From Thermodesulfobacteriota bacterium (lineage in GTDB: Bacteria > Desulfobacterota > Binatia > Bin18), in assembly GCA_964291405.2 (NCBI GenBank), contig OZ219926.1, forward strand, positions 1,632,001 through 1,696,000: a DNA stretch of 64,000 nucleotides, written 5' to 3'. The position numbers were made by a program, and so were the translations under genes. This document shows positions 2,589 through 30,320 of the stretch, one piece after another. The notes under the pieces are model-generated. The model saw only the letters and a list, made by a program, of their open reading frames with translations. It did no database searches and was not told the DNA's origin. Each line of letters opens with the position of its first letter. The first letter of the stretch is position 1.

Positions 2589-4709
2589 TTGTACAATAAG
2601 ACCTTTGTTCTTCTCTTTACCCTCTTCTTACTGGGGGAGTTTTTAGTCTTGCGCACCCAGGCACTCGCCCAGGAGCAGCAGTCGCCGGGATCCTCAGACA
2701 CGCCCAGTACCCAGACCCGGCCATTGAGCCCAACCGAGCTTGAGCCCATCGTCGTTACCGCGACCCGGAGCAATACCTCCCTGGCCGAGGTACCGGCAGC
2801 GGTGAGCGTCATTGACCGTTCAGATATCCAACTCGGGCTACCGACTGTCGGCTTTGAGGAGCCGCTCAGCCGTATCCCCGGCGTTTTTGCCCAGAACAGC
2901 GCGAATTTTGCCCAAGATTTCCGTCTCTCAATTCGTGGCTTTGGTACCCGGACCGCTTTTGGGGTGCGTGAGGTCAAGGTGCTGGTTGATGGCATCCCAG
3001 AGACCTCCCCGGACGGGCAAACCCAGCTTGATAATATCGATCTCGGGGCGGCCCAACGGATCGAGGTTTTGCGCGGGCCATCGTCTTCGCTGTACGGCAA
3101 TGCGTCCGGGGGCGTCATCAACATCATTACCGAGGACGGTCCAACCACACCGTTTCTTGAGACGCGCCTGATGGGAGGATCGTTTGGCCTCCAGAAATAT
3201 CAGGCAAAAACAGGGGGGCAGGCCGGCAAGCTGAATTATATGCTGAATGCCTCGTATCTGTCTCTGGGTGGTTTCCGGAATCATAGCCGCGCGCAAAATG
3301 TTTTGCTGACCGGCAAGCTGAAATACACGCTCAGCCCCACGTCCCATCTCACCACCCTGATGAGCTTTATGGACGCGCCCTTTGCCGACGACCCGGGCGG
3401 TATCACGCGGGCGCAGGTCGATGCGGACCGCGAGCAGGCCCGCGACCGGAATGTCCTGCTCGATTCGGGCGAACGGGTGACCCATGGCCGGCTCGGCTTT
3501 GTGTATCGCAACCAGTTTCTCCCAGGGCACGAACTCACAGTCACGCAGTACTCTGTATTCCGTCAGTTCGAGACCAAGCTACCCATCATTCCCCGCTTCG
3601 GTTCCGGTGTGGTCAAATTTGACCGCTTTGGGGTCGGTGGCAGCGTCAAGTACGCGCATGACGGTCGGTTCTTCGGGTTTCGGAATCGTTTTATGCTAGG
3701 CGTTGACGTCGAGTTGCAGGCCGATAATCGCCGCCGGTTTGATAATAACGAGGGGGATGTTGGTCAGCGCCGCTTCCACCAAGACGAAGACGTGCGCAGC
3801 GTCGGCCCGTTCCTGCACGACGTCTTCTATCTGCGCGACAATCTCCAGCTCAGTTTTGGGCTGCGCTACGACGATGTCCGTTTTTCGGTGAATGATCAGT
3901 TTCTCGAAGACGGCGACCAGTCCGGCGTGCAGACCTTCGATCACATCAGTCCCATGGGAGGCATTCTGTACAGCCCGCTTGAGAATCTGCACGTGTATGC
4001 CAATGTCTCCACCGCATTCCAGGTGCCGACCACGACCGAGTTGGCCCGGCCCGACGAAGGGGGAGGCTTCAATAACGACCTGAATCCGCAGCAAGCTCTG
4101 AATTACGAAATCGGGGCACGCGGCAATATCTGGAGCCGCCTCACGTATAATTTTGCCCTGTTCTGGATTGTCATCGATGACGAACTGGTGGCGTTTGAGA
4201 GCGAATCGGGCCGGAACTTCTTTCGCAACGCGGGCCGTTCTGAGCGGAAGGGGCTGGAACTCGCGTTTGATATCACCCTGATGGAAGGTCTCCGCTGGAC
4301 CCTGGCCTATAGTTTCCTCGATGCTGAATTTGACCGTTTTATTACCCCGAGCGGTCGCTTTGATAATAAAGACGAGCCCGGCATTCCCCCGCATCAACTC
4401 TTTACCGAACTCTTCTACGCTCATCCCTCCGGCTTCTACGGCGCGTTGAGCATTCAGCACGTGGATGACTTCTATGTGAATAACGCCAACTCGGCAGAGA
4501 ACGATGCGTACACCGTGCTGAATCTGCGCATGGGCTATGAAATGATGGTGGGGAACAGCCGTATCGCACCCTTTGTCGGTATCCGAAACATTGCCGACGA
4601 CGGCTATAACGGCCTCACCCGTCTGAACGCACTGGGCGGACGTTTCTTCGAGCCCTCAGCCGGTATCAACGCCTACGGTGGCGTGACTGTGAGCTACGAT
4701 TTCTTATAG
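2589..4709 (+). CDS. TonB-dependent receptor (YncD/FecA-like)
   Basis: Signal peptide, TonB box EPIVVTATR, plug motifs LSIRGFG and IEVLRGPSSSLYG, aromatic C-terminus. TTG2589 follows GGAGG (ORF track starts at 2565). TTGACA at 2525. Confidence 0.9.
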   Translation: MYNKTFVLLFTLFLLGEFLVLRTQALAQEQQSPGSSDTPSTQTRPLSPTELEPIVVTATRSNTSLAEVPAAVSVIDRSDIQLGLPTVGFEEPLSRIPGVFAQNSANFAQDFRLSIRGFGTRTAFGVREVKVLVDGIPETSPDGQTQLDNIDLGAAQRIEVLRGPSSSLYGNASGGVINIITEDGPTTPFLETRLMGGSFGLQKYQAKTGGQAGKLNYMLNASYLSLGGFRNHSRAQNVLLTGKLKYTLSPTSHLTTLMSFMDAPFADDPGGITRAQVDADREQARDRNVLLDSGERVTHGRLGFVYRNQFLPGHELTVTQYSVFRQFETKLPIIPRFGSGVVKFDRFGVGGSVKYAHDGRFFGFRNRFMLGVDVELQADNRRRFDNNEGDVGQRRFHQDEDVRSVGPFLHDVFYLRDNLQLSFGLRYDDVRFSVNDQFLEDGDQSGVQTFDHISPMGGILYSPLENLHVYANVSTAFQVPTTTELARPDEGGGFNNDLNPQQALNYEIGARGNIWSRLTYNFALFWIVIDDELVAFESESGRNFFRNAGRSERKGLELAFDITLMEGLRWTLAYSFLDAEFDRFITPSGRFDNKDEPGIPPHQLFTELFYAHPSGFYGALSIQHVDDFYVNNANSAENDAYTVLNLRMGYEMMVGNSRIAPFVGIRNIADDGYNGLTRLNALGGRFFEPSAGINAYGGVTVSYDFL

Positions 4710-18732: not shown

Positions 18733-20805
18733 ATGGACATCAACTCTGATGCGGTGTCTCTCTACGCAATGATTCTCGGCGTGATCGGGCTCATCGTGGC
18801 GTTTATTATTTTCAAGTCCGTTTCCAGTCAGCCTAGCGGCAGTGACCGCATGCAGGAGATTGCCAGCTCTATCTATGAAGGGGCCATGGCTTTTCTCAGG
18901 CGTGAATATCGAATCCTGATCATCTTCGTGCTGGTCGTCTTCGGCCTGCTCGCCTGGCAGGTCGCGCTTGAGACCGGTATCGCCTTTCTGACCGGTGCGA
19001 TCTGTTCTGCGCTGGCCGGCTATCTCGGTATGCAGTCGGCCACCAAGGCGAACGTCCGCACCTCTGAGGCCGCCAGGGCAGAGGGCGAGGGAGCCGCGCT
19101 GCTGGTGGCCTTCAATGGCGGGGCGGTCATGGGCCTGTCGGTCGCCAGCCTCGGCCTGCTCGGGGTCGGCGCTTTTCTCAGCCTGTACTCTGACCCGGCA
19201 ACCTCAACATACATCAGTGGCTTTGCCATGGGCGCGAGTTCCATCGCTCTGTTTGCTCGGGTCGGGGGCGGTATTTATACCAAAGCCGCGGACGTCGGCA
19301 GCGACCTGGTCGGCAAGGTTGAGGCCGGTATCCCCGAAGATGACCCCCGTAATCCCGGTGTGATTGCCGATAATGTCGGGGATAATGTCGGCGATGTGGC
19401 TGGTATGGGCGCGGATATTTTCGAGTCCTATGTGGGTTCCATCATTGCCACGATTGCGATCGGCGCGACGGTCATCGTGGGAAGCGATGTCTGGAACAAA
19501 CTAGGCGACGCGGGGGTGGAAGAAGCCGTGTTGCGCAATGCCCTCATGGCCCTGCCACTCAGCATGGCTGTCGTCGGCCTGCTGGCCTCCTTTCTGGGCA
19601 TCTTCTCGATGAAGGCGCTCAAGAACGTCGGGCCGCAGAACGCGCTGCGCTATTCCGGGTTCATTGCCGCGGGTGTGTTCATTATTGCGGCGCTCGTTCT
19701 GGTGAATGTCCTTCCCGTGGCGACCGGTATTTTCTGGGCGGTGGCGTCGGGTTGCGTAGTCGGTGTCGGAATCGGCCTGATCACCGAGTACTACACCTCG
19801 GCCTCGCCCGTAGCCCGGGTGGCAGAAGCCAGCAAGACGGGCTATGCCACCAACATCATTCACGGCCTGGCGGTCGGTCTGGAAAGCTGCGCACTGCCCG
19901 TCCTGGCCATTTGCGCTGCTATTTTTATTGCCAACCACTTTGCCGGCCTGTACGGCATTGGGATTGCCGGCGTCGGCATGCTGGCGACCGTAGGCGTTAC
20001 CATGTCTGTCGACGCCTACGGCCCCGTGGCAGACAACGCGGGTGGTATTTCCGAGATGGCCGAACTCGGCCCGGACGTCCGCAAGATTACTGACGGCCTG
20101 GACGCCCTGGGTAATACCACTGCAGCAATGGGAAAAGGCTTTGCAATCGGCTCTGCCGCCCTGACTGCCCTGGCCCTGTTTTCCGCGTTCACCCAAGCTG
20201 TTGACCAGAATCGACTGGCGGCGGGAATGGACCCGCTGCTCATCGTGGTAACCGATCCGGTCGTGGTCATTGGTCTGCTTCTGGGCGGGATTCTGCCGTT
20301 CTTTATCGGAGCCCTGACCATGACCGCGGTGGGCCGGGCAGCCGGTCAGATGGTAGATGAAATCCGGCGGCAGTTCCGCGAAATTCCCGGCCTGCTCGAA
20401 GGCAAGGAAGGCGCTCGGCCGGACGCGGCCCGCTGCGTGGATATTTCAACCGCAGCCGCCCTCAAGGAAATGATTCTGCCCGGTCTGACCGCGGTGATCG
20501 CTCCGGTCGTGGTCGGTCTGGTTCTTGGCGCCGCGGCTCTGGGTGGCATGCTCGCCGGGGCAACTGTTACCGGCGTGTTGCTGGCCCTGTTTATGGCCAA
20601 CGCGGGCGGCGCCTGGGACAACGCCAAAAAATCGATCGAAAAGGGCGAGGTTGAGGGCGAGGCCAAAGGCTCGGAAGCCCACAAGGCCACCGTCGTGGGC
20701 GACACGGTCGGCGACCCGCTGAAAGACACCTCGGGCCCCTCGCTCAACATCCTGATCAAGCTGATGGCGGTCGTGGCCCTGGTGATTGCGCCGCTGCTGG
20801 TATAG
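18733..20805 (+). CDS. hppA: Membrane-integral pyrophosphatase, K+-dependent type (probably Na+-translocating)
   Basis: [29 protein letters not shown] and [14 protein letters not shown] motifs. GNTTAA (Ala rather than Lys) marks K+ dependence. SD GAGGAGG. Confidence 0.95.
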
Positions 20806-20829
20806 CCGTCGTTTTACCGTGCAGCATCT

Positions 20830-20860
20830 AAGGGCGGGTACCAGGTACCCGCCCTTTTTT
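20830..20860 (+). terminator. Intrinsic terminator after hppA
   Basis: AAGGGCGGGTACC-A-GGTACCCGCCCTT followed by more T's. Confidence 0.9.
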
Positions 20861-20886
20861 GTTTGGGGTGTTGGCGGGCAAACTTA

Positions 20887-20957
20887 TTGACAAAGCAAGC
20901 CAATCGTATAGTCTTGGCTTCCCTAGTTGAAATTGATATTCATTATCAACTAGGGAA
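20887..20957 (+). promoter_or_regulatory. Sigma70 promoter plus Fur box
   Basis: TTGACA (20887) N16 TAGTCT. GAAATTGATATTCATTATC (20929-47) matches GATAATGATAATCATTATC at 16/19 and is embedded in the IR TTCCCTAGTTGA...TCAACTAGGGAA. Confidence 0.85.
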
Positions 20958-21069
20958 AGAGACGGTAGAAATTGCGGCCAAGAAGGCCGCTAACCAATCG
21001 TTGAGGCCCGAGGTTCCCACACCCAGAGCCCGTAAGGACAGCAATCCTTGCGGGCTTTTTTTATGTCTC
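20921..21069 (+). ncRNA. Candidate Fur-regulated sRNA or attenuating leader, copy 1
   Basis: Ends in AGCCCGTAAGGA-CAGCAA-TCCTTGCGGGCT plus a T-tract, about 40 nt before exbB. Homologous to 30189-30285 (-). Confidence 0.55.
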
Positions 21070-21102
21070 AGAGTCATTCGTCCGGTGCGAGGTATTGGCC
21101 CC

Positions 21103-21786
21103 ATGTATGCTGAATTGACAAGATTTTTAAGTGTCGGCGGGCCGGTTATCGGCCTGCTTATTTGCCTGTCGGTGGGTGCCCTGACCGTCATTCTGATCAA
21201 GCTGTGGCAATGGCGGCGGCAGCGACCCTGGCCGCGTGACATCACGGAACAGGCCCTTGCGAATCTGGAATACGGTGAGCGGACTCTGGCCATCAACCTG
21301 TTACAGGGTCAGCGGAACTATCAGGCTCGACTCATCAGCCACACGCTGCAACTGCTCGAAACCGGCGCGCTCTCCATTGAGGAGCTCAAGGATGAATCCA
21401 GGCGATTGGCACGTTCGTTCGTCGCCAAGCTGGACAGTTACGTACGCATCCTGGAAGTAATCGCGTCGTTAGCCCCCCTGCTGGGATTATTTGGAACCGT
21501 CCTCGGCATGATTGACGCCTTTCAGGCCATGGAGGCCGCGGGCACACAGGTCAATCCGAGCGTCCTTTCGGGTGGTATCTGGAAGGCATTGCTCACAACC
21601 GCAGCCGGACTCGCCATCGCCATTCCGGTCTCAATGGCGAACAGTTGGTTTGAACGCAGGATTGAGGTTGAGGCAACCGCCATGCTGGACCGGCTGGAGC
21701 GTATTTTCACTCTTGAGGCGAAAAAGCGGGCCGAACACAGGGTCGAACATCTGCACGTGCAGCCCGGCTCCCGGCTGGCAGGATGA
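21103..21786 (+). CDS. exbB: MotA/TolQ/ExbB proton channel protein
   Basis: APLLGLFGTVLGMI and GIWKALLTTAAGLAIAIP; ATG21103 follows GAGG. Confidence 0.9.
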   Translation: MYAELTRFLSVGGPVIGLLICLSVGALTVILIKLWQWRRQRPWPRDITEQALANLEYGERTLAINLLQGQRNYQARLISHTLQLLETGALSIEELKDESRRLARSFVAKLDSYVRILEVIASLAPLLGLFGTVLGMIDAFQAMEAAGTQVNPSVLSGGIWKALLTTAAGLAIAIPVSMANSWFERRIEVEATAMLDRLERIFTLEAKKRAEHRVEHLHVQPGSRLAG

Positions 21787-22196
21787 ACGAGACGCCGCTG
21801 TATTATCCACGCCGCCAGCCCATCAGCCTTACCCCGCTGATCGATGTGGTGTTCATTTTGCTGATGTTCTTCATGTTGACGTCTACTTTTACGCGCTGGA
21901 AGGCGGTTGACCTGCGGTTGCCCGTCGCCAGTTCCGACGCCAGCCCGAAGAAACCCCAGGCGTTACTCCTGTATACGGATGGCTCGATCTCGTTGCGCGG
22001 ACGCCCGTTTCAGCTTTCGGACCCCGACGCGGAAGCGGCTCTCTCCGTCGCCCTTGATCCCGCTCGACCGGTCGTTGTGTTTCCCGAAGCCGACACCCGC
22101 GTGCAAACCATTATCTCCACCTTCGAGGGGCTCACCGCGGCAGGTGTTTCGGGCGCCGTTTTGGGAGTAGCCCTGGAACGGGAGGCAGAAGATTGA
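21783..22196 (+). CDS. exbD: Biopolymer transporter ExbD
   Basis: ISLTPLIDVVFILLMFFML with the conserved TM Asp. Confidence 0.9.
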   Translation: MNETPLYYPRRQPISLTPLIDVVFILLMFFMLTSTFTRWKAVDLRLPVASSDASPKKPQALLLYTDGSISLRGRPFQLSDPDAEAALSVALDPARPVVVFPEADTRVQTIISTFEGLTAAGVSGAVLGVALEREAED

Positions 22197-22639
22197 ATCC
22201 TCGTCGGGCCGACATCCTCCTCACACACGTCAATCTACGCCGAGGACGGAGCAGTGATATTGGCGTGATTCCGCTGATAAACATCGTCCTGCTGCTGCTG
22301 ATTTTCTTTTTGATTGCCGGCCAAATGGCCGACCGGCGGGACCAACAGGGCTTCCAACCTCCGACTTCCGTCAGCAACAAACCCATCCGCCACCAACCCA
22401 TTACGCTGTCGCTGAATACACGCCGACAGCCTGCCCTCAACGGAAAGGAGCTTTCGTTCGAGGCCCTCGGTTCGGCCCTGCAAGTCGCGCTGGCCGACGA
22501 CACCCAACAGGTGGCACTGAAAATAGACCGGGACGTAACGGCCGGCACGCTCGACAAGCTCCTGGATGTCATTCGCTCCCACAATGTCACGACGGTAATG
22601 CTGTACAGCGTGAATGCGGAGGACCGGAGCCAGCCATGA
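22193..22639 (+). CDS. exbD: Second ExbD (TM Asp replaced by Asn)
   Basis: IPLINIVLLLLIFFLIAG and LKIDRD; 4-nt overlaps with both neighbours. Confidence 0.85.
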   Translation: MNPRRADILLTHVNLRRGRSSDIGVIPLINIVLLLLIFFLIAGQMADRRDQQGFQPPTSVSNKPIRHQPITLSLNTRRQPALNGKELSFEALGSALQVALADDTQQVALKIDRDVTAGTLDKLLDVIRSHNVTTVMLYSVNAEDRSQP

Positions 22640-23511
22640 AATACCTGCACTGGGGTTTCGCGTTCGGGGCCGCGCTCGGAATTCATCTCGTGAGTGCGTA
22701 TGCATATTTCAATTGGGTCCCCCAACAGTCCCAACCGCGTGGGGCGATTGACTTGGGTGAAGGCGGGGTCGAGATCGGCCTGGGCCGGATTGGCTCGTAT
22801 GCAGACCTGACCGAGCGACCCGTAGTGCCGTCCGTATCCGACCAAGCCAAAACCAACGCCGCGCAGCAGGAAACAGATCCGGGGTCACAAAACGTCGAGG
22901 TCAAACCGTCTCCCCCTGCACAACCCCTGCCGGATATGAAGCCGGTAGAGGTTCCCGCTCCCGAGCCTCCGGTCGTCCCGGTCGAAAAACAGGCAGTGGT
23001 GGCTAAACGACCACCGGTCGAACCGTCAGAAACCCTCCCCCGTCCTCCCGAACCTGAGCAACCGATGCAGACAAAGCCGAGTCCCCAATATGAGGCTGCG
23101 TCCAGTCTACCGACCAGCCCTGACGTATCGACCCAAGCCGCGCCCAGCCCACGCTCATCCGTGGCGATGCGCGCGACTGGAAAACGGCAACGTCCGACTT
23201 TAGGCGGACGGGTCGGCAACCCAAAAGACTATTTCAGCTTGCTCATCGCTTGGCTAAACCAACACAAAGACTATCCCCCCGCGGTCAAGAAGAAAAAACA
23301 GCAGGGCACGGTAGTCTTGGCGTTTTCCATTGACCGCAGCGGCACCGTGCTCACCTCCCGCGTCCAAGAAAGTTCCGGCTATCCGTTATTGGATCAGGCT
23401 GCGCTCGACATGCTGGCCCGAGCCAACCCGCTGCCGGCCATGCCCGACTCCATGCCGCGCCAACGCCTGCGCCTGGCGGTGCCCATCGAATATTCGCTGG
23501 TAACGGAATAG
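22636..23511 (+). CDS. tonB: Energy transducer TonB
   Basis: TM segment with His (ALGIH), Pro-rich linker, and C-domain YP...QGTVVLAFSIDRSG...SSGYPLLDQAA. Confidence 0.92.
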   Translation: MKYLHWGFAFGAALGIHLVSAYAYFNWVPQQSQPRGAIDLGEGGVEIGLGRIGSYADLTERPVVPSVSDQAKTNAAQQETDPGSQNVEVKPSPPAQPLPDMKPVEVPAPEPPVVPVEKQAVVAKRPPVEPSETLPRPPEPEQPMQTKPSPQYEAASSLPTSPDVSTQAAPSPRSSVAMRATGKRQRPTLGGRVGNPKDYFSLLIAWLNQHKDYPPAVKKKKQQGTVVLAFSIDRSGTVLTSRVQESSGYPLLDQAALDMLARANPLPAMPDSMPRQRLRLAVPIEYSLVTE

Positions 23512-23534
23512 CGCCAGAATAACGGACGCGGCGC

Positions 23535-24134
23535 ATGAACGTGGACACACGCAATTTGAATCCCCCTCCGCCACGCAGACACTTGGTTGTCACCTGTCTC
23601 GTGGCTGTTGCGTTAGCGCTGAATGTTGTCCTTGTGATGTTGGCTCCCCCGGTCTCAGCCCAAGAAGCTCAGGCCACGATCACCCTGGACGTCCTCCACA
23701 TTCAGGGCCGCGTCATTGGAGAGCCCGACTGCATCACGTTTCGACACAGTCGAGCTCGTGACAGCTTCTGTGTCAGCCTTCACACACCTGACTACCGACC
23801 AAGGAGACGGTCCGGTCAACAACCCGAAGCAAAGGCTGCGCGCCCAGGCGACTACCCAAGCCAGCTTCTGGCACGGCTGAGCCAATACAAAAACTATCTG
23901 CCAGCACTGCGAAAAAAGCGGCAACAGGGCACCGTGGTGTTGGCGTTCTGCATTGACCGCAGCGGCTCAGTGCTCGCCTCCCATGTCCGAGAAAGTTCGG
24001 ACCATCCGCTGCTGGACCAAACCGCACTTGACCTGTTGGTCAAAGCCAGTCCACTACCGGCCATGCCGGATTCCACAACGCACGAGCGCCTGCATTTCGT
24101 GCTGCCAGTCAAGTTCTCCCTGACCACACGATGA
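23535..24134 (+). CDS. Chimeric TonB C-terminal-domain protein with receptor-like N-terminus
   Basis: The C-terminal ~94 aa align with the upstream TonB C-domain. The N-terminus aligns with the signal peptide/TonB-box region of the downstream receptor. Confidence 0.7.
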   Translation: MNVDTRNLNPPPPRRHLVVTCLVAVALALNVVLVMLAPPVSAQEAQATITLDVLHIQGRVIGEPDCITFRHSRARDSFCVSLHTPDYRPRRRSGQQPEAKAARPGDYPSQLLARLSQYKNYLPALRKKRQQGTVVLAFCIDRSGSVLASHVRESSDHPLLDQTALDLLVKASPLPAMPDSTTHERLHFVLPVKFSLTTR

Positions 24135-24163
24135 CAAATGTCCACACACGGAAGGAGCAAAGC

Positions 24164-25567
24164 ATGAAGCACAAGAAAAAGAGAGCAGGAAAGGTGAAGA
24201 AACCGCTGGAACCGTGCCGGTCCGCCACCTCTACTATGACCAATAATGCGGTCGCCCTGAGCATTTCCGCAGTGATGTTGGGTGGCACGGCCCTGGCCCA
24301 GGAGGCCCAGGACGAAGAGGAGGCCGTCTTGCTGGACAAAGTCCAGATTCAGGACCGTACAATCGATACCAACCCCTATGCCGAGTCCGGCGTGCCGTAT
24401 AAGGCCCGCGTCTCGGGTGACCTGCGCCGCCTGGAGGAACTGGCCGACACGCCCCAGACCATGACCGTACTGACCCAGACCCAGATCGAAGATTCAGGCA
24501 AATCCGATTTGCGTGAGATATTATCCGCTCAGCCCGGTATCACCTTGGGAACGGGTGAGGGCGGCAACGCCTTTGGCGACCGTTATATCATTCGTGGTCA
24601 CGAAGCCCGTAGCGACGTGTTCGTAGACGGCATGCGCGACCCCGGCATGACCATCCGCGAGAGCTTCGCTCTGGAACAGGTCGAAATCACCAAAGGTCCC
24701 AGCTCGACCTTTGCCGGTCGCGGCTCGACGGGTGGGGCCATCAACGGCATCACCAAACAGGCCAGCAGCGAATACGATTTCGTCAAGTTTCAAGGCGGCC
24801 TGGGTACCGACGAGTATTACCGGGTGCATCTGGACGCCAATAAACGTTTCACCGATGAACTGGCCGTACGGGCCAACCTGCTGTACGCCAACGAGGAAGT
24901 GCCGGACCGGGCACCCGCAGAACGTTTGCGCCGCGGCGCGGCGGTGTCCGGCAGATACGACCCCACGGACAATAAGTTCTACCTGTCCTTTGATTATTAT
25001 TTTCTTGATGCGGAGGACGACCCTGACCTCGGGACCCAGATTGAACAGTTCGGCAACCCCTTTGATGATATTCCGGTCTATCTGCAAAAGGACCGCGATT
25101 TTCTCAAGTCGGAGGTGCATACTTTTACGTTTCGGGGCGGCTATGAATTCAACGATAATTTCCGGCTGGAAAGCGTCACCCGCTATGGATTCACCGACAA
25201 CGGCTACGTGCTGACCGGAACCAGCGCCTTCTGGAAGCTGACCGGCACGGATCAAGTGGCGTGGCGGTTGAGCCAAAAAGACGGCTGGCAGGAGGTGGAC
25301 TATGTTGCCACCCAACTCAATGCCTTTCTGGACACTGGTCTGAGTTTTACCCAGCACGGTCTACTCTTGGGTGTGGAGTACTCGGAACATAATGTGCTCA
25401 ACGGACGCTATAATGTCGACCCCAGAGGCACACCCAATTGCGATGTCGAGGGGGTCTGGCGCGGCACGCTGTACAGCCGCCCCGGCAGTTATTGCATGTA
25501 CGATAACAGCGGCAATCTGACCGCCAACCTGAACAGCTTCATGGACCTCGCCATCAGCCGGGGCGAC
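24164..25567 (+). pseudogene. 3'-truncated Fiu/PiuA-like TonB-dependent siderophore receptor
   Basis: PGITLGTGEGGNAFGDRYIIRG and QVEITKGPSSTFAGRGSTGGAIN motifs. Receptor-like sequence stops at ISRGD; the ORF then runs antisense through hmuU to 26509. Confidence 0.85.
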
Positions 25568-26500
25568 AACGGTGCGAGCCAGCGTGTCGGCCACCAGCAG
25601 CAGGGTCGCACCCAGCAGAGCGGAGGCCGGAATCAACAGGCGGTGGTCCGGCCCGATGGTGAGGCGGATCATATGCGGTACGACCAGGCCCACGAAGCCG
25701 ATGATCCCGCTCGTTGCTACCGCAGCGCCGACCGCAAGGGCGACACAGATGGTCACGTTGCGTTTCAGCTGTTCACTATTGATACCGAGATAGCGCGCTT
25801 CATCCTCGCCGAGCAGCAGGATATTCAGTTTTTGGGCATTCCGAATCAGCAGCAGCGTTGCCGGCAGGACGAGCGTGGTGGCCACACTGAGTGTGGGCCA
25901 GAGGGCCGCGCCGAGGCTACCCATGGTCCAGAACGTCAAGGCGCGCAACTGGGTATCGTCGCTCAGATAGGTCAGGAAGCCGGTTCCGGCTCCGCTCAGC
26001 GCGTTGATGGCAATACCGGCCAGCAGCATATAGGTGACGGAAAAGGTTTCCATCTGTCGGGCCAGCCGAAAAATCAGCAGACAGGCCAGCAGCCCGCCGA
26101 TAAAGGCGGCGATACTCAGCCCGTACAAGCCCAGCGTACCCGTCAGAGGTCCGGCCCAGACGATCATGACCGCAACGGCCAGGGCCGCGCCGCTGGCAAT
26201 GCCGATCAGGCCGGGGTCGGCCAGAGGGTTGCGGAACAAGCCCTGCAAGGCCGCACCGGAAACGGCCAGGGCCGCGCCGACAACGCTGGCCAGCAGCACA
26301 CGCGGCAGCCGGATGGAGAAGAGGACGGCTTCCTGCTGCGTATTCAGGCTGCCGTCGAACAGCGCAACGACCGGCACGGACACCGCACCGATGCATGCAG
26401 CCGTAAGGGCAGTCAGGACGAATACCCCGCCCAGCAGCACCAACACGATCGCCCGAAGCCGCAGGAAGGGCAATACCACTGGTTTCGCTGCCCCGCTCAC
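25554..26500 (-). pseudogene. hmuU: 3'-truncated heme ABC transporter permease (FecCD family)
   Basis: IRLPR, LQGLFRNPLADPGLIG and IGFVGLVVPH motifs. After ADTLARTVVAPA the expected last TM (ELP.G..TA..GAPFF) is missing, and the ORF reads on to 25361 antisense to the receptor. Confidence 0.85.
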
Positions 26501-27348
26501 AAGCCCTGATACGCCTCGTGCAGTGTGGCCGCAGCTTGCACGGTACGCGGGCCAAACCCCAGCAACAGCAGGGCATCCATGACGATCAGGCTGCCGGTCC
26601 TGGCGGCCGGCGTGAGGGACAGCCCTGGAGCGGTCAGCAGGGCGTCCTTGCCGCCGGCCTGCGCAAGCCCCCGGGCCGTGGTGAGAATCACGTCCGGCTG
26701 CAGGGCGGCCGCGGCCTCCGGCGTAAGGGGCTTGTAGCCGGCATAGCCGGAGACGGCGTTCCGGGCACCCGAGAGTCTGATGATGCTGTCCGCGGCAGTC
26801 TCTCGGCCGGCCGCCATCGGCGCGCCGCCGCCATGCTGGAGAATGAAAAGTACCCGTTTGTCAGTCGGGTGCCCGGCCGTGACTTTTGCCAACTCGGCAG
26901 TCTGATGGTCAATGGCATCAGTCAGGGCGCTACCCGCTCGTTCTTTTTTCAGGGCGCTGGCAATCACCCGGATGGCGTCCCGTACATCCGCCAGCGAACG
27001 GCCGGCCCTCAGACTCAGGATCGGAATATTGGCCGCCTGCAACTGTGCCAGCACGGCCGGCGGTCCAGCTTCTTCGGTCAGAATCACGAGGTCGGGATAC
27101 AGCGAGACAATCCCCTCCGCGGACAGGGTGCGCTGATAACCGACCTTAGGCAGGCGTTCGGCTTCCGGCGGATAATAACTGGTGGTGTCGTTACCGACCA
27201 GCATCTCCTGCGCTTCCAGCGCATAGACGATTTCCGTCAGGGCTCCGCCAATGGTGACAACGCGGCGCGGCGCCTCGGCAAGGGCCGGCAACGCAAAAAA
27301 GATCAACCCCCAGGCCAGAATGAGACGCCGAACGGAGTCCGCTACCAT
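26497..27348 (-). CDS. hmuT: Heme ABC transporter periplasmic binding protein
   Basis: RVVTIGGALTEIVYAL, VGYQRTLSAEG (Tyr heme ligand) and LLGFGPR. Confidence 0.9.
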   Translation of the reverse strand: MVADSVRRLILAWGLIFFALPALAEAPRRVVTIGGALTEIVYALEAQEMLVGNDTTSYYPPEAERLPKVGYQRTLSAEGIVSLYPDLVILTEEAGPPAVLAQLQAANIPILSLRAGRSLADVRDAIRVIASALKKERAGSALTDAIDHQTAELAKVTAGHPTDKRVLFILQHGGGAPMAAGRETAADSIIRLSGARNAVSGYAGYKPLTPEAAAALQPDVILTTARGLAQAGGKDALLTAPGLSLTPAARTGSLIVMDALLLLGFGPRTVQAAATLHEAYQGL

Positions 27349-29558
27349 TGGTACGACACCCGCGTGACAAAACTGCGGCCTTCTTCCAGCAAACTGGCGA
27401 AGCGTTTGGTGTATGCCTTATCCGCGATATTCTCGATTCCGAAGTCCACAGTCACCGCTCCCGATCCTTGGCCGGTCGGCGTCCAGTGCTGATGCGGGGT
27501 CCAGCGGAAGTAGAGGTCGTGCACGCCATAGCCGTCGGTCGGCACGTCGTTGTCGCCCACACGGTCATTTCTCTCGGCAAACCGGCCACGCCAGCCGATC
27601 ACGCCGTTGAGCGCGTCTATCCGAAACTCGACCCCTGCAACAATCGTCAGCGGCACATTGTTGAGCAGATATTCACCGGTATCGTCGTTCTTCGCCTTGA
27701 CGTAGGACAGCCCCAGTCGGGCGGTGACCAGTTCCAGTTCGTAGCGGCCCTCCGCTTCCCAGCCCATCAGGTCGGCGTCCGGGATGTTCAGGATTTTTGT
27801 CGTTCCGGCCCGGACATCGACTTCTGGGGTAATGAAGTCGTCTCCCTCGCTGGTGAACCATGACCCTTTCACGGTCACGCGGTCGTTCGCCGCCAGGACA
27901 CTCTCGAAGTTCAGCCCCGCCCCCACCTCGATTGTAGTGACGGTTTCCGGCTTCAAATCCGGATTCGGCACGAAGCGGTTGTCCGGGGCAAAAGCGGTGG
28001 GGGCGAGCACTGGGCTGCCATCGGGTCTGAGCACCGGCACCTGCACCGGACGGCCATCAGGGCCGATTACCGGGCGACCGTCCGGGCCGATTTCCGGTCT
28101 GGTCAACGGCCCGAACTCAAACGGAAACCCGCCCGGAAAATGCAGGCCAGCCGGATACAGCTCTGTCAGATTGGGAGCTCGGAACGCTTGAGCCCAGCTC
28201 CCGAACAGCATGAGGTTCTCAATCGGCTTGTAGCTCAGCGACACTTTTGGCGACACTTCGTGTTCGTTCTGCGAGTTCCCGATTTCGTCGTCGCTCTCGT
28301 AATGGTCGAAGCGCAGGGCCGGAATGAACAGCACCTCACCGATAGGGGTGTGGAGGGCGACTTCATCCTGGAGATAAAAGCCCAGCGTCAGGGCCTCGGC
28401 ATCCGGTACGCCGCTCCGCTTTCCGTCCGGGGTGGCCGAACTCTTGCCGACTTGGTCGTTCGTGTAGATTTCAAGTCCGTACGAAAACGTGTGTCCGTGC
28501 ATACCGCTCACCGCCCAGCGGGTCTGATTATCGATGGTAAAGCCGAGCGTCTCCATCTCCCGCGTCTGCACCCGACCGACGCGCCGACCGGTCACGTCTT
28601 CTTCCTCCACTTCGGTGTCGTTGTAATACAGGTGAAGTTTCGGACTCAGCCAGCGATTGGCCGGATTATCGAAGGCGTAGCGCAGGCTGAACTGGTTGTC
28701 CTGCACTTCCTTATTCACAATGATGTTGGACAGCGCCGAGCTGGCACTGGCACCGTTATTGGGCTCCTGCCCGTCGTTATTGAACACCTGCGCCTGAAAC
28801 TTGAGCGTGTGGAAGTCCTTCAGGGTATAGCCGGCTTTGAACAGGCCGGACAGCAGGCGATCGTCCGTATCCAGCTCGTTGCCGTTGCCCTGTTCTATAT
28901 CACCCGAATCGCGTAAGGAGAAATTGGCCAGGAGATCCCAGCCACGGTAACGGCCAAACCCCGTCAGGGTCGGGGCATATTCAGCGCTCGCGTTGCGATA
29001 GCCGAAAGAGGCCAGGGCACCCACGCTCTGGCCTGGAGCCAGCAGGTCCGCAGCGTCCTTTGTTTCAAAGGCCACCACGCCACCAATGCCGCCTCCCCCA
29101 TATATGGCCGAGGACGCTCCTTTGACCACTTCGATCGACTTCAGCAGCGAGGGATCAACATAGAAACGGCCGTCATGCCCGGACTCGAAATTCTGGCGGC
29201 GACCATCCATGAGCGTGATGATCGCCTCATCGTCAAAACCGCGGATGGAGATCGTCTGTCCGTTCCGCCGCGGGCCGTTATCCACTTCTACACCTGGGGT
29301 GAATTCCAGCAGGTCCGCCACGTCACCGGCCAGGGCGTTGCCTGGAGCATCCGTCTCCACCTGAGAGATAAGTGCCGGGACATCAAACGTCGGTTGCGGG
29401 CTGCGGGTGGCGTAAGAGGATATCGTGATCTTATCCAGCAATGTGGGTGGTTCCTCGTCTTGCGCATGCACCACGAGGCCAGCGCTTGTCCACAGAAAAC
29501 AGACAGCAACGAGTGCTATCGCTCCCTTGGCGATCAGTCTTGGGCGTTGAACTGCCAC
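27342..29558 (-). CDS. hmuR: TonB-dependent heme/hemoglobin receptor
   Basis: Plug SGHDGR His, FRAP...HF...NPDL motifs and C-terminal SYQW. Confidence 0.9.
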   Translation of the reverse strand: MAVQRPRLIAKGAIALVAVCFLWTSAGLVVHAQDEEPPTLLDKITISSYATRSPQPTFDVPALISQVETDAPGNALAGDVADLLEFTPGVEVDNGPRRNGQTISIRGFDDEAIITLMDGRRQNFESGHDGRFYVDPSLLKSIEVVKGASSAIYGGGGIGGVVAFETKDAADLLAPGQSVGALASFGYRNASAEYAPTLTGFGRYRGWDLLANFSLRDSGDIEQGNGNELDTDDRLLSGLFKAGYTLKDFHTLKFQAQVFNNDGQEPNNGASASSALSNIIVNKEVQDNQFSLRYAFDNPANRWLSPKLHLYYNDTEVEEEDVTGRRVGRVQTREMETLGFTIDNQTRWAVSGMHGHTFSYGLEIYTNDQVGKSSATPDGKRSGVPDAEALTLGFYLQDEVALHTPIGEVLFIPALRFDHYESDDEIGNSQNEHEVSPKVSLSYKPIENLMLFGSWAQAFRAPNLTELYPAGLHFPGGFPFEFGPLTRPEIGPDGRPVIGPDGRPVQVPVLRPDGSPVLAPTAFAPDNRFVPNPDLKPETVTTIEVGAGLNFESVLAANDRVTVKGSWFTSEGDDFITPEVDVRAGTTKILNIPDADLMGWEAEGRYELELVTARLGLSYVKAKNDDTGEYLLNNVPLTIVAGVEFRIDALNGVIGWRGRFAERNDRVGDNDVPTDGYGVHDLYFRWTPHQHWTPTGQGSGAVTVDFGIENIADKAYTKRFASLLEEGRSFVTRVSYQW

Positions 29559-29631
29559 GTCTTATCTCCTTACCCGGTTTCGCGCCTCAAATAGGCGATA
29601 CTCTTTAGTCCGTCACGAACCAGCCTGCCCC

Positions 29632-30171
29632 CTACACGACAAAGGCCAGAATCAGGCAAACGGCCAGACCGACGACACCGGTGGCGATGGTTCTGGCCCG
29701 CAGCCCCGCGCTGGACAGCCCCAGCCACAATCCGCTGAAGACAATAAACAATACGCCAACCGCCAGAACTTTCTGAAAATCCTTGAACCACAACGGACCG
29801 TGTCCCTTGTGGAGTTCGATCAGACGCTTTTGCAGGTCCGGGACGTTACGCTTCACGGTTACAGGGTCATCGGCGACCGAAATCTCATAGTGAGTCCGCG
29901 AGGTCGGACGGGTATACAGCGTATTCCCGCTCTTCTTCACGTATTCAAAGTCATGCGTGATACCGATATCGTGCAGCAGGGCCCGCACGTCGGCCTCAAG
30001 AGAAGCGGAAGCCGGATTAACGACAACACCGGAGGGCACGGTCACCGGGGTGCTGGTCACGGTACCCTTGATGCCAACGAGATAGAGTCCCCCGGAAATG
30101 GCGACGAACAACAGGGCCAGCACAAAAAACGCCGCCGCGTACAGATGCAGACTGATCCAAAAGTTACGCAT
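29632..30171 (-). CDS. PepSY-associated TM helix (iron-regulated) membrane protein
   Basis: LHLY in TM1, LIELHKGHG and SGLWL motifs; first gene of the heme operon. Confidence 0.7.
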   Translation of the reverse strand: MRNFWISLHLYAAAFFVLALLFVAISGGLYLVGIKGTVTSTPVTVPSGVVVNPASASLEADVRALLHDIGITHDFEYVKKSGNTLYTRPTSRTHYEISVADDPVTVKRNVPDLQKRLIELHKGHGPLWFKDFQKVLAVGVLFIVFSGLWLGLSSAGLRARTIATGVVGLAVCLILAFVV

Positions 30172-30188
30172 GATGACAACGAGCCCCA

Positions 30189-30285
30189 GAGACGAAAAAA
30201 GCCCATAAGGAGGACACTCCTTATGGGCTCTGCGCTTAGTGGCGGCTGGCCTCTCAACTTATAAGTGATTTTGAAATTCAATTTC
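30189..30285 (-). ncRNA. Candidate Fur-regulated sRNA or attenuating leader, copy 2
   Basis: CAGAGCCCATAAGGAG-TGTC-CTCCTTATGGGC-TTTTTT-CGTCTC, homologous to copy 1. Confidence 0.55.
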
Positions 30286-30320
30286 AATAGGATGATACAC
30301 AACCTTTATGGTTCAGTCAA
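30266..30320 (-). promoter_or_regulatory. Sigma70 promoter plus Fur-like box
   Basis: On the minus strand: TTGACT N17 TATCAT, then TTGAAATTGAATTTCAAAATCA. This is 18/22 identical to the box at 20927-20948 and matches the Fur consensus at 13/19 on +. Confidence 0.8.

Follow-up and report, generated by a model that had tools for sequence, protein, structure and literature searches.

Fur-repressed small RNAs (sRNAs) such as RyhB, PrrF1/PrrF2 and HrrF can occur as paralogous copies beside iron or heme uptake genes, as PrrF does. Leader attenuation is exemplified by HutP, TRAP, PyrR, BglG/SacY and ANTAR, where an RNA-binding protein decides whether the leader terminator forms and its site overlaps the 5' side of that terminator. 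In Fur-regulated uptake operons with the small regulatory protein HemP/HmuP/ChuP, TonB-dependent receptors are expressed only if this protein is present in addition to the lifting of Fur repression; it probably acts via conserved GC-rich repeats (HPRE) in the 5' untranslated region (UTR) (PMC9131926). The Com protein of phage Mu binds the word CC(N)2-3GAG, of which GA is crucial, in or next to a short hairpin that adjoins the translation-inhibition hairpin of mom, and its binding is thought to melt that inhibitory hairpin (PMC6483171). Here we describe a leader RNA element that heads two iron-uptake operons in a 64,000-nt stretch of DNA (the window; contig OZ219926.1, positions 1,632,001 to 1,696,000, of assembly GCA_964291405.2) from a Thermodesulfobacteriota bacterium of the class Binatia. 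Com-mom is its closest mechanistic relative and HmuP/ChuP with HPRE its closest physiological analogue. Our comparisons suggest that a conserved core in the element is the docking site of a Com-like zinc-ribbon protein, and with roughly even confidence we propose that each leader is a cis-acting attenuator opened by this Fur-controlled protein, which would form a second layer over Fur.

Two covariance models were used. R1 was built from 14 leaders, all of the Fur-box type, without knowledge of the zinc-ribbon protein, and it scores the window copies at 82-83 bits (E about 1e-20). R2 describes the motif only and was partly trained on regions chosen as positive for the zinc-ribbon gene. An initial annotation of the window had described the same architecture at both operons, namely a sigma70 promoter, a Fur-like box, a short non-coding stretch and a terminator before the first gene, and this was confirmed by sequence, scan and fold. 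The parts of the two leaders are as follows.

20887-20914, plus strand: copy 1 promoter, TTGACA at 20887-20892 with a -10 hexamer TATAGT at 20907-20912 (spacer 14) or TAGTCT at 20909-20914 (spacer 16), from the sequence
20927-20948, plus strand: copy 1 Fur-like box of 22 nt, within a perfect palindrome at 20921-20955, from sequence and fold
20974-20990, plus strand: copy 1 hairpin 2 (GCGGCC-AAGAA-GGCCGC), from the fold
20994-21031, plus strand: copy 1 core motif (R2 36.2 bits, alignment A5, pair counts), with GGCC at 21006-21009, the mini-hairpin arms GGU at 21012-21014 and ACC at 21021-21023, and CC-CA-GAG at 21022-21028
21025-21062, plus strand: copy 1 intrinsic terminator, stem-loop 21025-21058 with a 14-bp stem and 6-nt loop, T7 at 21056-21062 (fold, -23.4 kcal/mol, z -6.7)
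30292-30320, minus strand: copy 2 promoter, TTGACT at 30320-30315, 17-nt spacer, TATCAT at 30297-30292 (scan, 10/12 matches)
30266-30287, minus strand: copy 2 Fur-like box, 19/23 against the genome's own box consensus
30225-30262, minus strand: copy 2 core motif (R2 39.2 bits, the best match in the genome)
30195-30231, minus strand: copy 2 intrinsic terminator, stem-loop 30231-30198 with a 15-bp stem and 4-nt loop, T6 at 30200-30195 (fold, -24.8 kcal/mol, z -6.5)

The sigma70 promoter was called at copy 2, with its 17-nt spacer, but not at copy 1, which the consensus scan passed over because the hexamers are 14 nt apart; they combine a perfect -35 and a good -10 at this odd spacing, and both the hexamers and the spacing are kept in 4 relatives of the genus. 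The two boxes are 18/22 identical on recount and the strings first quoted for the 3' modules are exact, as are the changes in the terminator stem that keep pairing (G-C to A-U, U-G to U-A). The predicted terminated transcripts are 91 and 143 nt long. The 5' hairpin of the copy 1 transcript is predicted to arise from the palindrome, whose arms co-vary in relatives (CCC/GGG to UUU/AAA). Hairpin 2 is replaced by GCGACUGG/CCAGUCGC in one relative (G006) and is absent in another (G004). The stretch between hairpin 2 and the terminator is single-stranded, and CC-CA-GAG extends from it into the terminator foot.

Comparison across the class indicates that the conserved unit is the stretch of about 30 nt upstream of the hairpin, not the terminator itself. 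The core consensus is AGMGGCC-MG-M[GGY-loop-RCC]C-A-GAGCCC. Only three parts stay constant across the class, namely the 3-bp mini-hairpin, the single-stranded letters that flank it and the bottom 8-9 bp of the terminator stem; further up the stem and in the loop, length and sequence are free across families. RNAalifold predicted the mini-hairpin unaided. Over 57 sequences it is paired in 98.8% of 171 cells, slid controls pair in 25-59%, all three pairs show double changes (UA 29, CG 24, UG 4), and the covariation score was unmatched in 500 shuffles. GAG is present in 52 of the 57, and a second CC-N-GAG lies upstream in copies with A at the variable position. A tandem 7-nt repeat with a matching variable letter (AGMGGCC, AGMGGUC) was considered and dropped, since the M letters are the same in 32 of the 57 sequences but unlike in 25, which amounts to no real correlation between them. 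T-loop or tRNA-like, ANTAR-like and IRE-like readings of the mini-hairpin were dropped by eye because the defining loop letters are lacking.

The same core is followed by either of two expression platforms, a terminator or, directly, a ribosome-binding site, and in some terminator-less cases (G156, G134, G113) it is predicted to pair with the Shine-Dalgarno region. Such a combination of one sensor with more than one platform points to an element that acts in cis. These data also bear on the possibility that there is no switch at all and that the leaders are terminators that always leak, or elements of RNA stability, which were duplicated from one iron locus to another and set a fixed proportion of leader to operon transcript. 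The presence of paralogous copies in a single genome would fit such a view, as would the lack of an alternative (antiterminator) fold in the minimum free energy or centroid structures of the window leaders. However, the single-stranded letters and the stem foot are invariant in sequence across at least 10 families while the rest drifts, and the terminator-less versions are conserved too, so we regard this explanation as very unlikely. Rfam scans at gathering thresholds gave no matches in the window; at E <=10 only noise was returned, and ten motif loci searched at E <=0.05 had 0 matches. The element is absent from Rfam. Among the papers listed for Binatia/Binatota regulatory RNAs and for COG4416, PF10122 and DUF6510, none gives an account of it.

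The initial annotation had taken the leaders for twins. Both are real, but they are not a pair, since R2 found five core copies in the window's own genome (G000, 4.9 Mb) at 28.9-39.2 bits, the next match scoring 19 bits. Three of the five copies have a terminator and two lack one, and all five lie behind Fur-like boxes. The copies outside the window are these.

G000:C3:732734-732798: third copy, terminated, found by R1 as a diverged copy
C3:725288-725323: fourth copy, between a small ORF and an imelysin gene, without terminator (R2)
C3:3485904-3485940: fifth copy, leader of a porin-like gene behind a TTGACA-plus-box promoter, without terminator (R2)

The third copy is served by a separate TTGACA promoter with a 23/23 box, lies between a CDGSH iron-sulfur protein gene and the feoB locus, and is followed by no open reading frame (ORF) for about 370 nt. 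The hairpin is not a genome-wide repeat: the 15-nt arm, with at most 2 mismatches, occurs only at the two window loci and at three unrelated places in the 4.9 Mb. The five R2 loci are exactly where Fur-like box words cluster in the genome, and no other Fur-like-box loci were found. Scored against the genome's own box consensus, the copy 1 box reaches 21/23 over a background maximum of 16/23 in 2000 windows. Among 35 motif copies in families f1 and f2 and at locus L059, 29 have a box of at least 17/23 within 200 nt upstream, a score that 0/2000 random windows reached, compared with 0/13 copies in families f4-f12. The genome encodes two Fur-family proteins, and we infer that Fur is the protein reading the boxes. 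The rarity of the 15-nt arm and the R1 scores of the window copies show that the original observation is more than chance.

Densely overlapping Fur-like boxes (L095:2966-3008 and 3840-3925; G000:C3:723966-724925) flank a divergent ferritin-like gene and the zinc-ribbon gene described below. A compact Fur regulon can be predicted from these loci together with feoAB, CDGSH, the imelysin gene and the porin-like gene. About 200 nt after the third-copy terminator (G000:C3:732525-732734, minus strand; L094:4525-4734) are conserved across the genus more than the motif. This stretch folds into hairpins, one with the anti-Shine-Dalgarno-like loop AUCCCUCCUAC, and ends in a weak terminator-like hairpin; it has no Rfam match and a double change in only 1 pair among 7 sequences. 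It is possibly an sRNA that depends on read-through.

Orthologous leaders were detected by DNA search in 11 genomes among 41 relatives. The exbB-type leader is found in G010, G006, G002 and G004 and, diverged, in G016, G012 and G025; the PepSY-type leader is found in G010, G006, G002, G004 and G017, plus G019. G006 carries a third leader copy ahead of another receptor gene. R1 matches 18 of the 28 genomes of the genus, whose exbB operon is present in 7/28 with the leader upstream in 7/7. When 185,579 species genomes were scanned for the hairpin pattern, 43 stretches came back, comprising true relatives and unrelated terminators; the matches in Pantoea, Erwinia and Tatumella are ordinary terminators, some beside ssrA, and were set aside. 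Across the class R1 matches 27/151 genomes in eight families. Beyond the window's family no Fur box accompanies the element, which immediately follows the stop codon of a small ORF and precedes a gene whose ribosome-binding site is strong. In one PepSY-type leader (L009, in G017) the core and terminator are kept, the promoter region is replaced by a different sequence with a short tandem repeat, and no Fur-like box lies within 200 nt (best 12/23).

With a Fur-like box at one end and a strong terminator at the other, the leaders are discrete units that could be trans-acting sRNAs of the RyhB/PrrF type, 91 and 143 nt long, pairing with iron-protein mRNAs while the operons are fed by leaky read-through. 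They resemble Fur-repressed sRNAs in having a Fur box over the promoter or start (21/23 and 19/23), a short transcript and a Rho-independent terminator; conserved single-stranded letters 5' of the terminator are seen in many sRNAs, and the third copy, with its own promoter and box, precedes no ORF. However, several observations favour an attenuator. The ATG of exbB (21103) lies 41 nt past the copy 1 U-tract and that of the PepSY gene (30171) 24 nt past the copy 2 U-tract, which leaves no room for a promoter, and the consensus scan found no promoter-like site between terminator and first gene at either copy. The leader precedes the exbB operon in every operon-bearing genome of the genus, so the copies are operon 5' leaders rather than autonomous genes. 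Versions of the core that lack a terminator occur as well, within 5' leaders and in spacers between genes that run into the ribosome-binding site, and the core is always co-oriented with an ORF and directly upstream of it. The lower terminator stem is sequence-invariant across families with a free upper stem, unlike an sRNA terminator, and no Rfam sRNA family matches. Between the two readings offered by the initial annotation, the attenuator is therefore favoured, and a new pair of Fur-controlled sRNAs is less supported and appears unlikely, a trans-acting role being least improbable for the stand-alone third copy. In both window copies a GC-rich hairpin with a U-tract stands between the promoter and the first gene, and we propose that the element is a protein-responsive leader RNA. 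The attenuation logic would be like that of HutP, TRAP, PyrR, BglG/SacY and ANTAR, but the protein fold and RNA motif in Binatia are unrelated to theirs, these families having been compared by Rfam scans only.

The small ORF upstream of the motif encodes a CxC..CxxC zinc ribbon of 57-82 aa, rich in conserved Arg and Lys (alignment A3). The window's genome has a single such gene.

G000:C3:724010-724258: zinc-ribbon gene, 82 aa, with a TTGACA promoter overlapped by Fur-like boxes

The zinc-ribbon gene is present in 23 of the 27 R1-matched genomes, compared with 56 of all 151. The four R1 matches in genomes without the gene (G031, G032, G059, G072) look like generic terminators, a judgement made after seeing them. 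Eleven R1 matches, in families f4, f10, f11 and f12, directly follow the zinc-ribbon stop codon. In 20 zinc-ribbon regions taken from R1-negative genomes, the core was found by eye within about 60 nt after 14-15 of 19 recovered ORFs, mostly without a terminator. The motif lies at most 160 nt downstream of the zinc-ribbon gene on the same strand in 28 genomes of the class sample, and in the window's genus about 1.1 kb downstream at the same locus. Among 80 metagenome loci picked by protein homology alone, 46 had an R2 match (E <=0.01), all on the strand of the gene and just downstream of it. In 44 unique metagenome loci a terminator was present in 12 by a simple rule and in three more by eye, and the others run into a ribosome-binding site. 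R1 and this metagenome set are the fair tests of co-occurrence. A profile search of the PDB with the zinc-ribbon protein gave nothing below E 0.05, and Pfam scans of the protein and of neighbouring small ORFs gave no HemP-family match. The Binatia protein, a zinc ribbon, thus differs in family from HmuP; HPRE has no described terminator, and the likeness of its GCCAGC-type repeats to GGCCAGC in the core is superficial only.

Conserved sensor, variable platforms and a metal-uptake gene context would also be expected of a riboswitch-like leader whose core binds a small ligand or metal (iron, heme or a siderophore) and switches a terminator or ribosome-binding-site hairpin. No more than about 30 nt are conserved, with a helix of 3 bp and no sign of a pocket-forming fold, no Rfam riboswitch matches, and the near-obligate position after the zinc-ribbon gene would be left unexplained; we hold this explanation to be quite improbable. 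A further possibility is that of protein decoys. CsrB is a sponge for CsrA, and terminated leaders, chiefly the stand-alone third copy, might similarly titrate the zinc-ribbon protein and tune its other sites. There are five sites for one protein gene, and strong terminators would give abundant short RNAs bearing the site. However, each RNA has one core, as opposed to the many repeats typical of sponge RNAs, and the location immediately ahead of operons favours action in cis, which makes decoys highly improbable.

In other Binatia families (L125, L131, L132, L133, L134, L136), a secreted protein is often the product of the gene that follows the zinc-ribbon gene and motif, and the starts of these ORFs share a conserved N-terminal stretch that reads roughly IVIDD.T.GT.YD.ILDG.PG. 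A second family, of 66-78 aa and without a Pfam match, is encoded directly downstream of the motif or of Fur-like boxes (L095:4001-4237, which is G000:C3:725001-725237; L096, L097, L101, L111). Examples occur in G052, G136 (three times), G139 and G047, and in the window's own genome the member stands ahead of a motif copy that lacks a terminator.

The zinc-ribbon protein resembles Com of phage Mu. By hhalign, A3 aligns with Mu Com over 36 columns at a probability of 86.8% (E 4.3e-6), both having the pattern RC..C..LL...IE.[KR]C.RCKR, and many homologues are labelled 'phage FluMu protein Com' by JGI. At the level of sequence matching, the core CC-CA-GAG fits the Com word and reaches from the 3' arm of the mini-hairpin into the foot of the terminator. 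Com-mom and the Binatia element are alike in that the gene for a small Cys4 zinc protein lies immediately before the RNA site and that a short hairpin flanked by CC(N)2-3GAG adjoins an inhibitory hairpin, the one opened by Com in Mu (PMC6483171). They differ in that the Binatia element occurs in a chromosomal iron-regulon context instead of at a phage DNA-modification gene, that the inhibitory hairpin in the window is a transcription terminator and not a start-codon hairpin, that the first zinc knuckle in Binatia is CxC, and that one gene would serve several dispersed sites in its own genome.

Several points weigh against a Com-like reader of the core. The Pfam Com model (PF10122) hits the family below its cut-off, in 3 of 13 members with a best E of 0.01, and a genome scan with it did not pick up the zinc-ribbon gene. 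No Com was found by tblastn against 50,697 phage records. R2 has no match in the Mu com/mom region, so the only RNA feature in common with Mu is the 5-letter gapped word, for which we estimate a chance of about 1-2% of occurring in a 13-nt core at random. The co-occurrence by R2 in the class sample (42 genomes with both, 14 with the protein only, 1 with the motif only, 94 with neither) is inflated because R2 was partly trained on zinc-ribbon-positive regions. Related genomes are non-independent samples, synteny could reflect no more than shared iron operons, and the zinc-ribbon gene of the window's genome is far from both window copies.

The gene content of the two operons, as established by Pfam, agrees with the iron-uptake function first assigned to both.

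21103-26509, plus strand: copy 1 operon
21103-21786, plus strand: exbB
21783-22196, plus strand: exbD
22193-22639, plus strand: exbD
22636-23511, plus strand: tonB
23535-24134, plus strand: tonB
24131-26509, plus strand: TonB-dependent receptor
26497-30171, minus strand: copy 2 operon
30171-29632, minus strand: PepSY-TM-like protein (PepSY matches below the Pfam cut-off)
29558-27342, minus strand: TonB-dependent receptor
27348-26497, minus strand: periplasmic binding protein

Copy 1 is placed after the terminator of the H+-pyrophosphatase gene (hppA). Between its U-tract and exbB, a 16-codon ORF at 21063-21113 (plus strand), which begins right after the U-tract and overlaps the exbB start (ATGTATGCTGA), was considered as a leader peptide. 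It was not read as coding because, by eye, all differences among four relatives change the amino acid, and this highly conserved stretch is more readily taken for a conserved 5' UTR than for a peptide. Five RNA runs contained 5-8% of the words of window 19800-23500, and their contigs, which come from relatives, span only hppA at 19800-20815 and scraps; they leave the leader and exbB uncovered and are thus no evidence either way. The hppA part (19800-20815, plus strand) is matched by marine and sponge metatranscriptome contigs at about 85% to more than 99%, one 288-nt piece having 2 differences.

Based on these data, we propose the following model for the attenuator. Under low iron, Fur would leave the box at about +1 to +30, and polymerase would transcribe a leader of 91 or 143 nt. 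Left to itself, the strong intrinsic terminator would halt transcription ahead of exbB or the PepSY gene. The recognition element would consist of the single-stranded GGCC segment, the 3-bp mini-hairpin and CC-CA-GAG-CCC, overlapping the 5' foot of the terminator. The Com-like protein (G000:C3:724010-724258), itself presumably derepressed by low iron behind its own Fur-like boxes, would bind the core and keep the terminator foot single-stranded, allowing read-through into the iron-uptake genes. This would be the transcriptional counterpart of the melting of the mom translation-inhibition hairpin by Com, and in lineages without the terminator the core may instead pair with the Shine-Dalgarno region, as in Mu. 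A protein factor that prevents the terminator is proposed here from comparative evidence only, and both its binding to the core and its activating direction are inferred. Fur acting over both the leaders and their activator would make a feed-forward loop that delays or filters the induction of TonB-dependent uptake.

At the level of the class, and more tentatively than for the window leaders, it is possible that Binatia have adopted a Com-type protein as a post-transcriptional arm of the iron-starvation response, in which one Fur-controlled reader of many leaders and spacers switches terminators or ribosome-binding-site hairpins and its Cys4 site perhaps serves as a metal sensor. If true, this would be an undescribed family of regulon-wide protein-RNA switches. 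Gram-negative iron uptake is usually accounted for by Fur, joined in some lineages by sRNAs, extracytoplasmic function (ECF) sigma factors or HmuP-type proteins, and the element would add a layer to this account. It is conserved and covarying, has no Rfam counterpart and comes with a candidate partner that resembles a translational activator of a phage; its apparent role is to control TonB systems and receptors once Fur repression has been lifted. Recognition of the Com type would then no longer be confined to one phage gene and to translation but would reach a chromosomal regulon and the termination of transcription. The finding of the same sensor with different expression platforms offers a clean comparative set for defining a new cis-regulatory RNA family, and for the uncultured Binatia it would provide a testable circuit made of a 40-nt RNA and an 82-aa protein.

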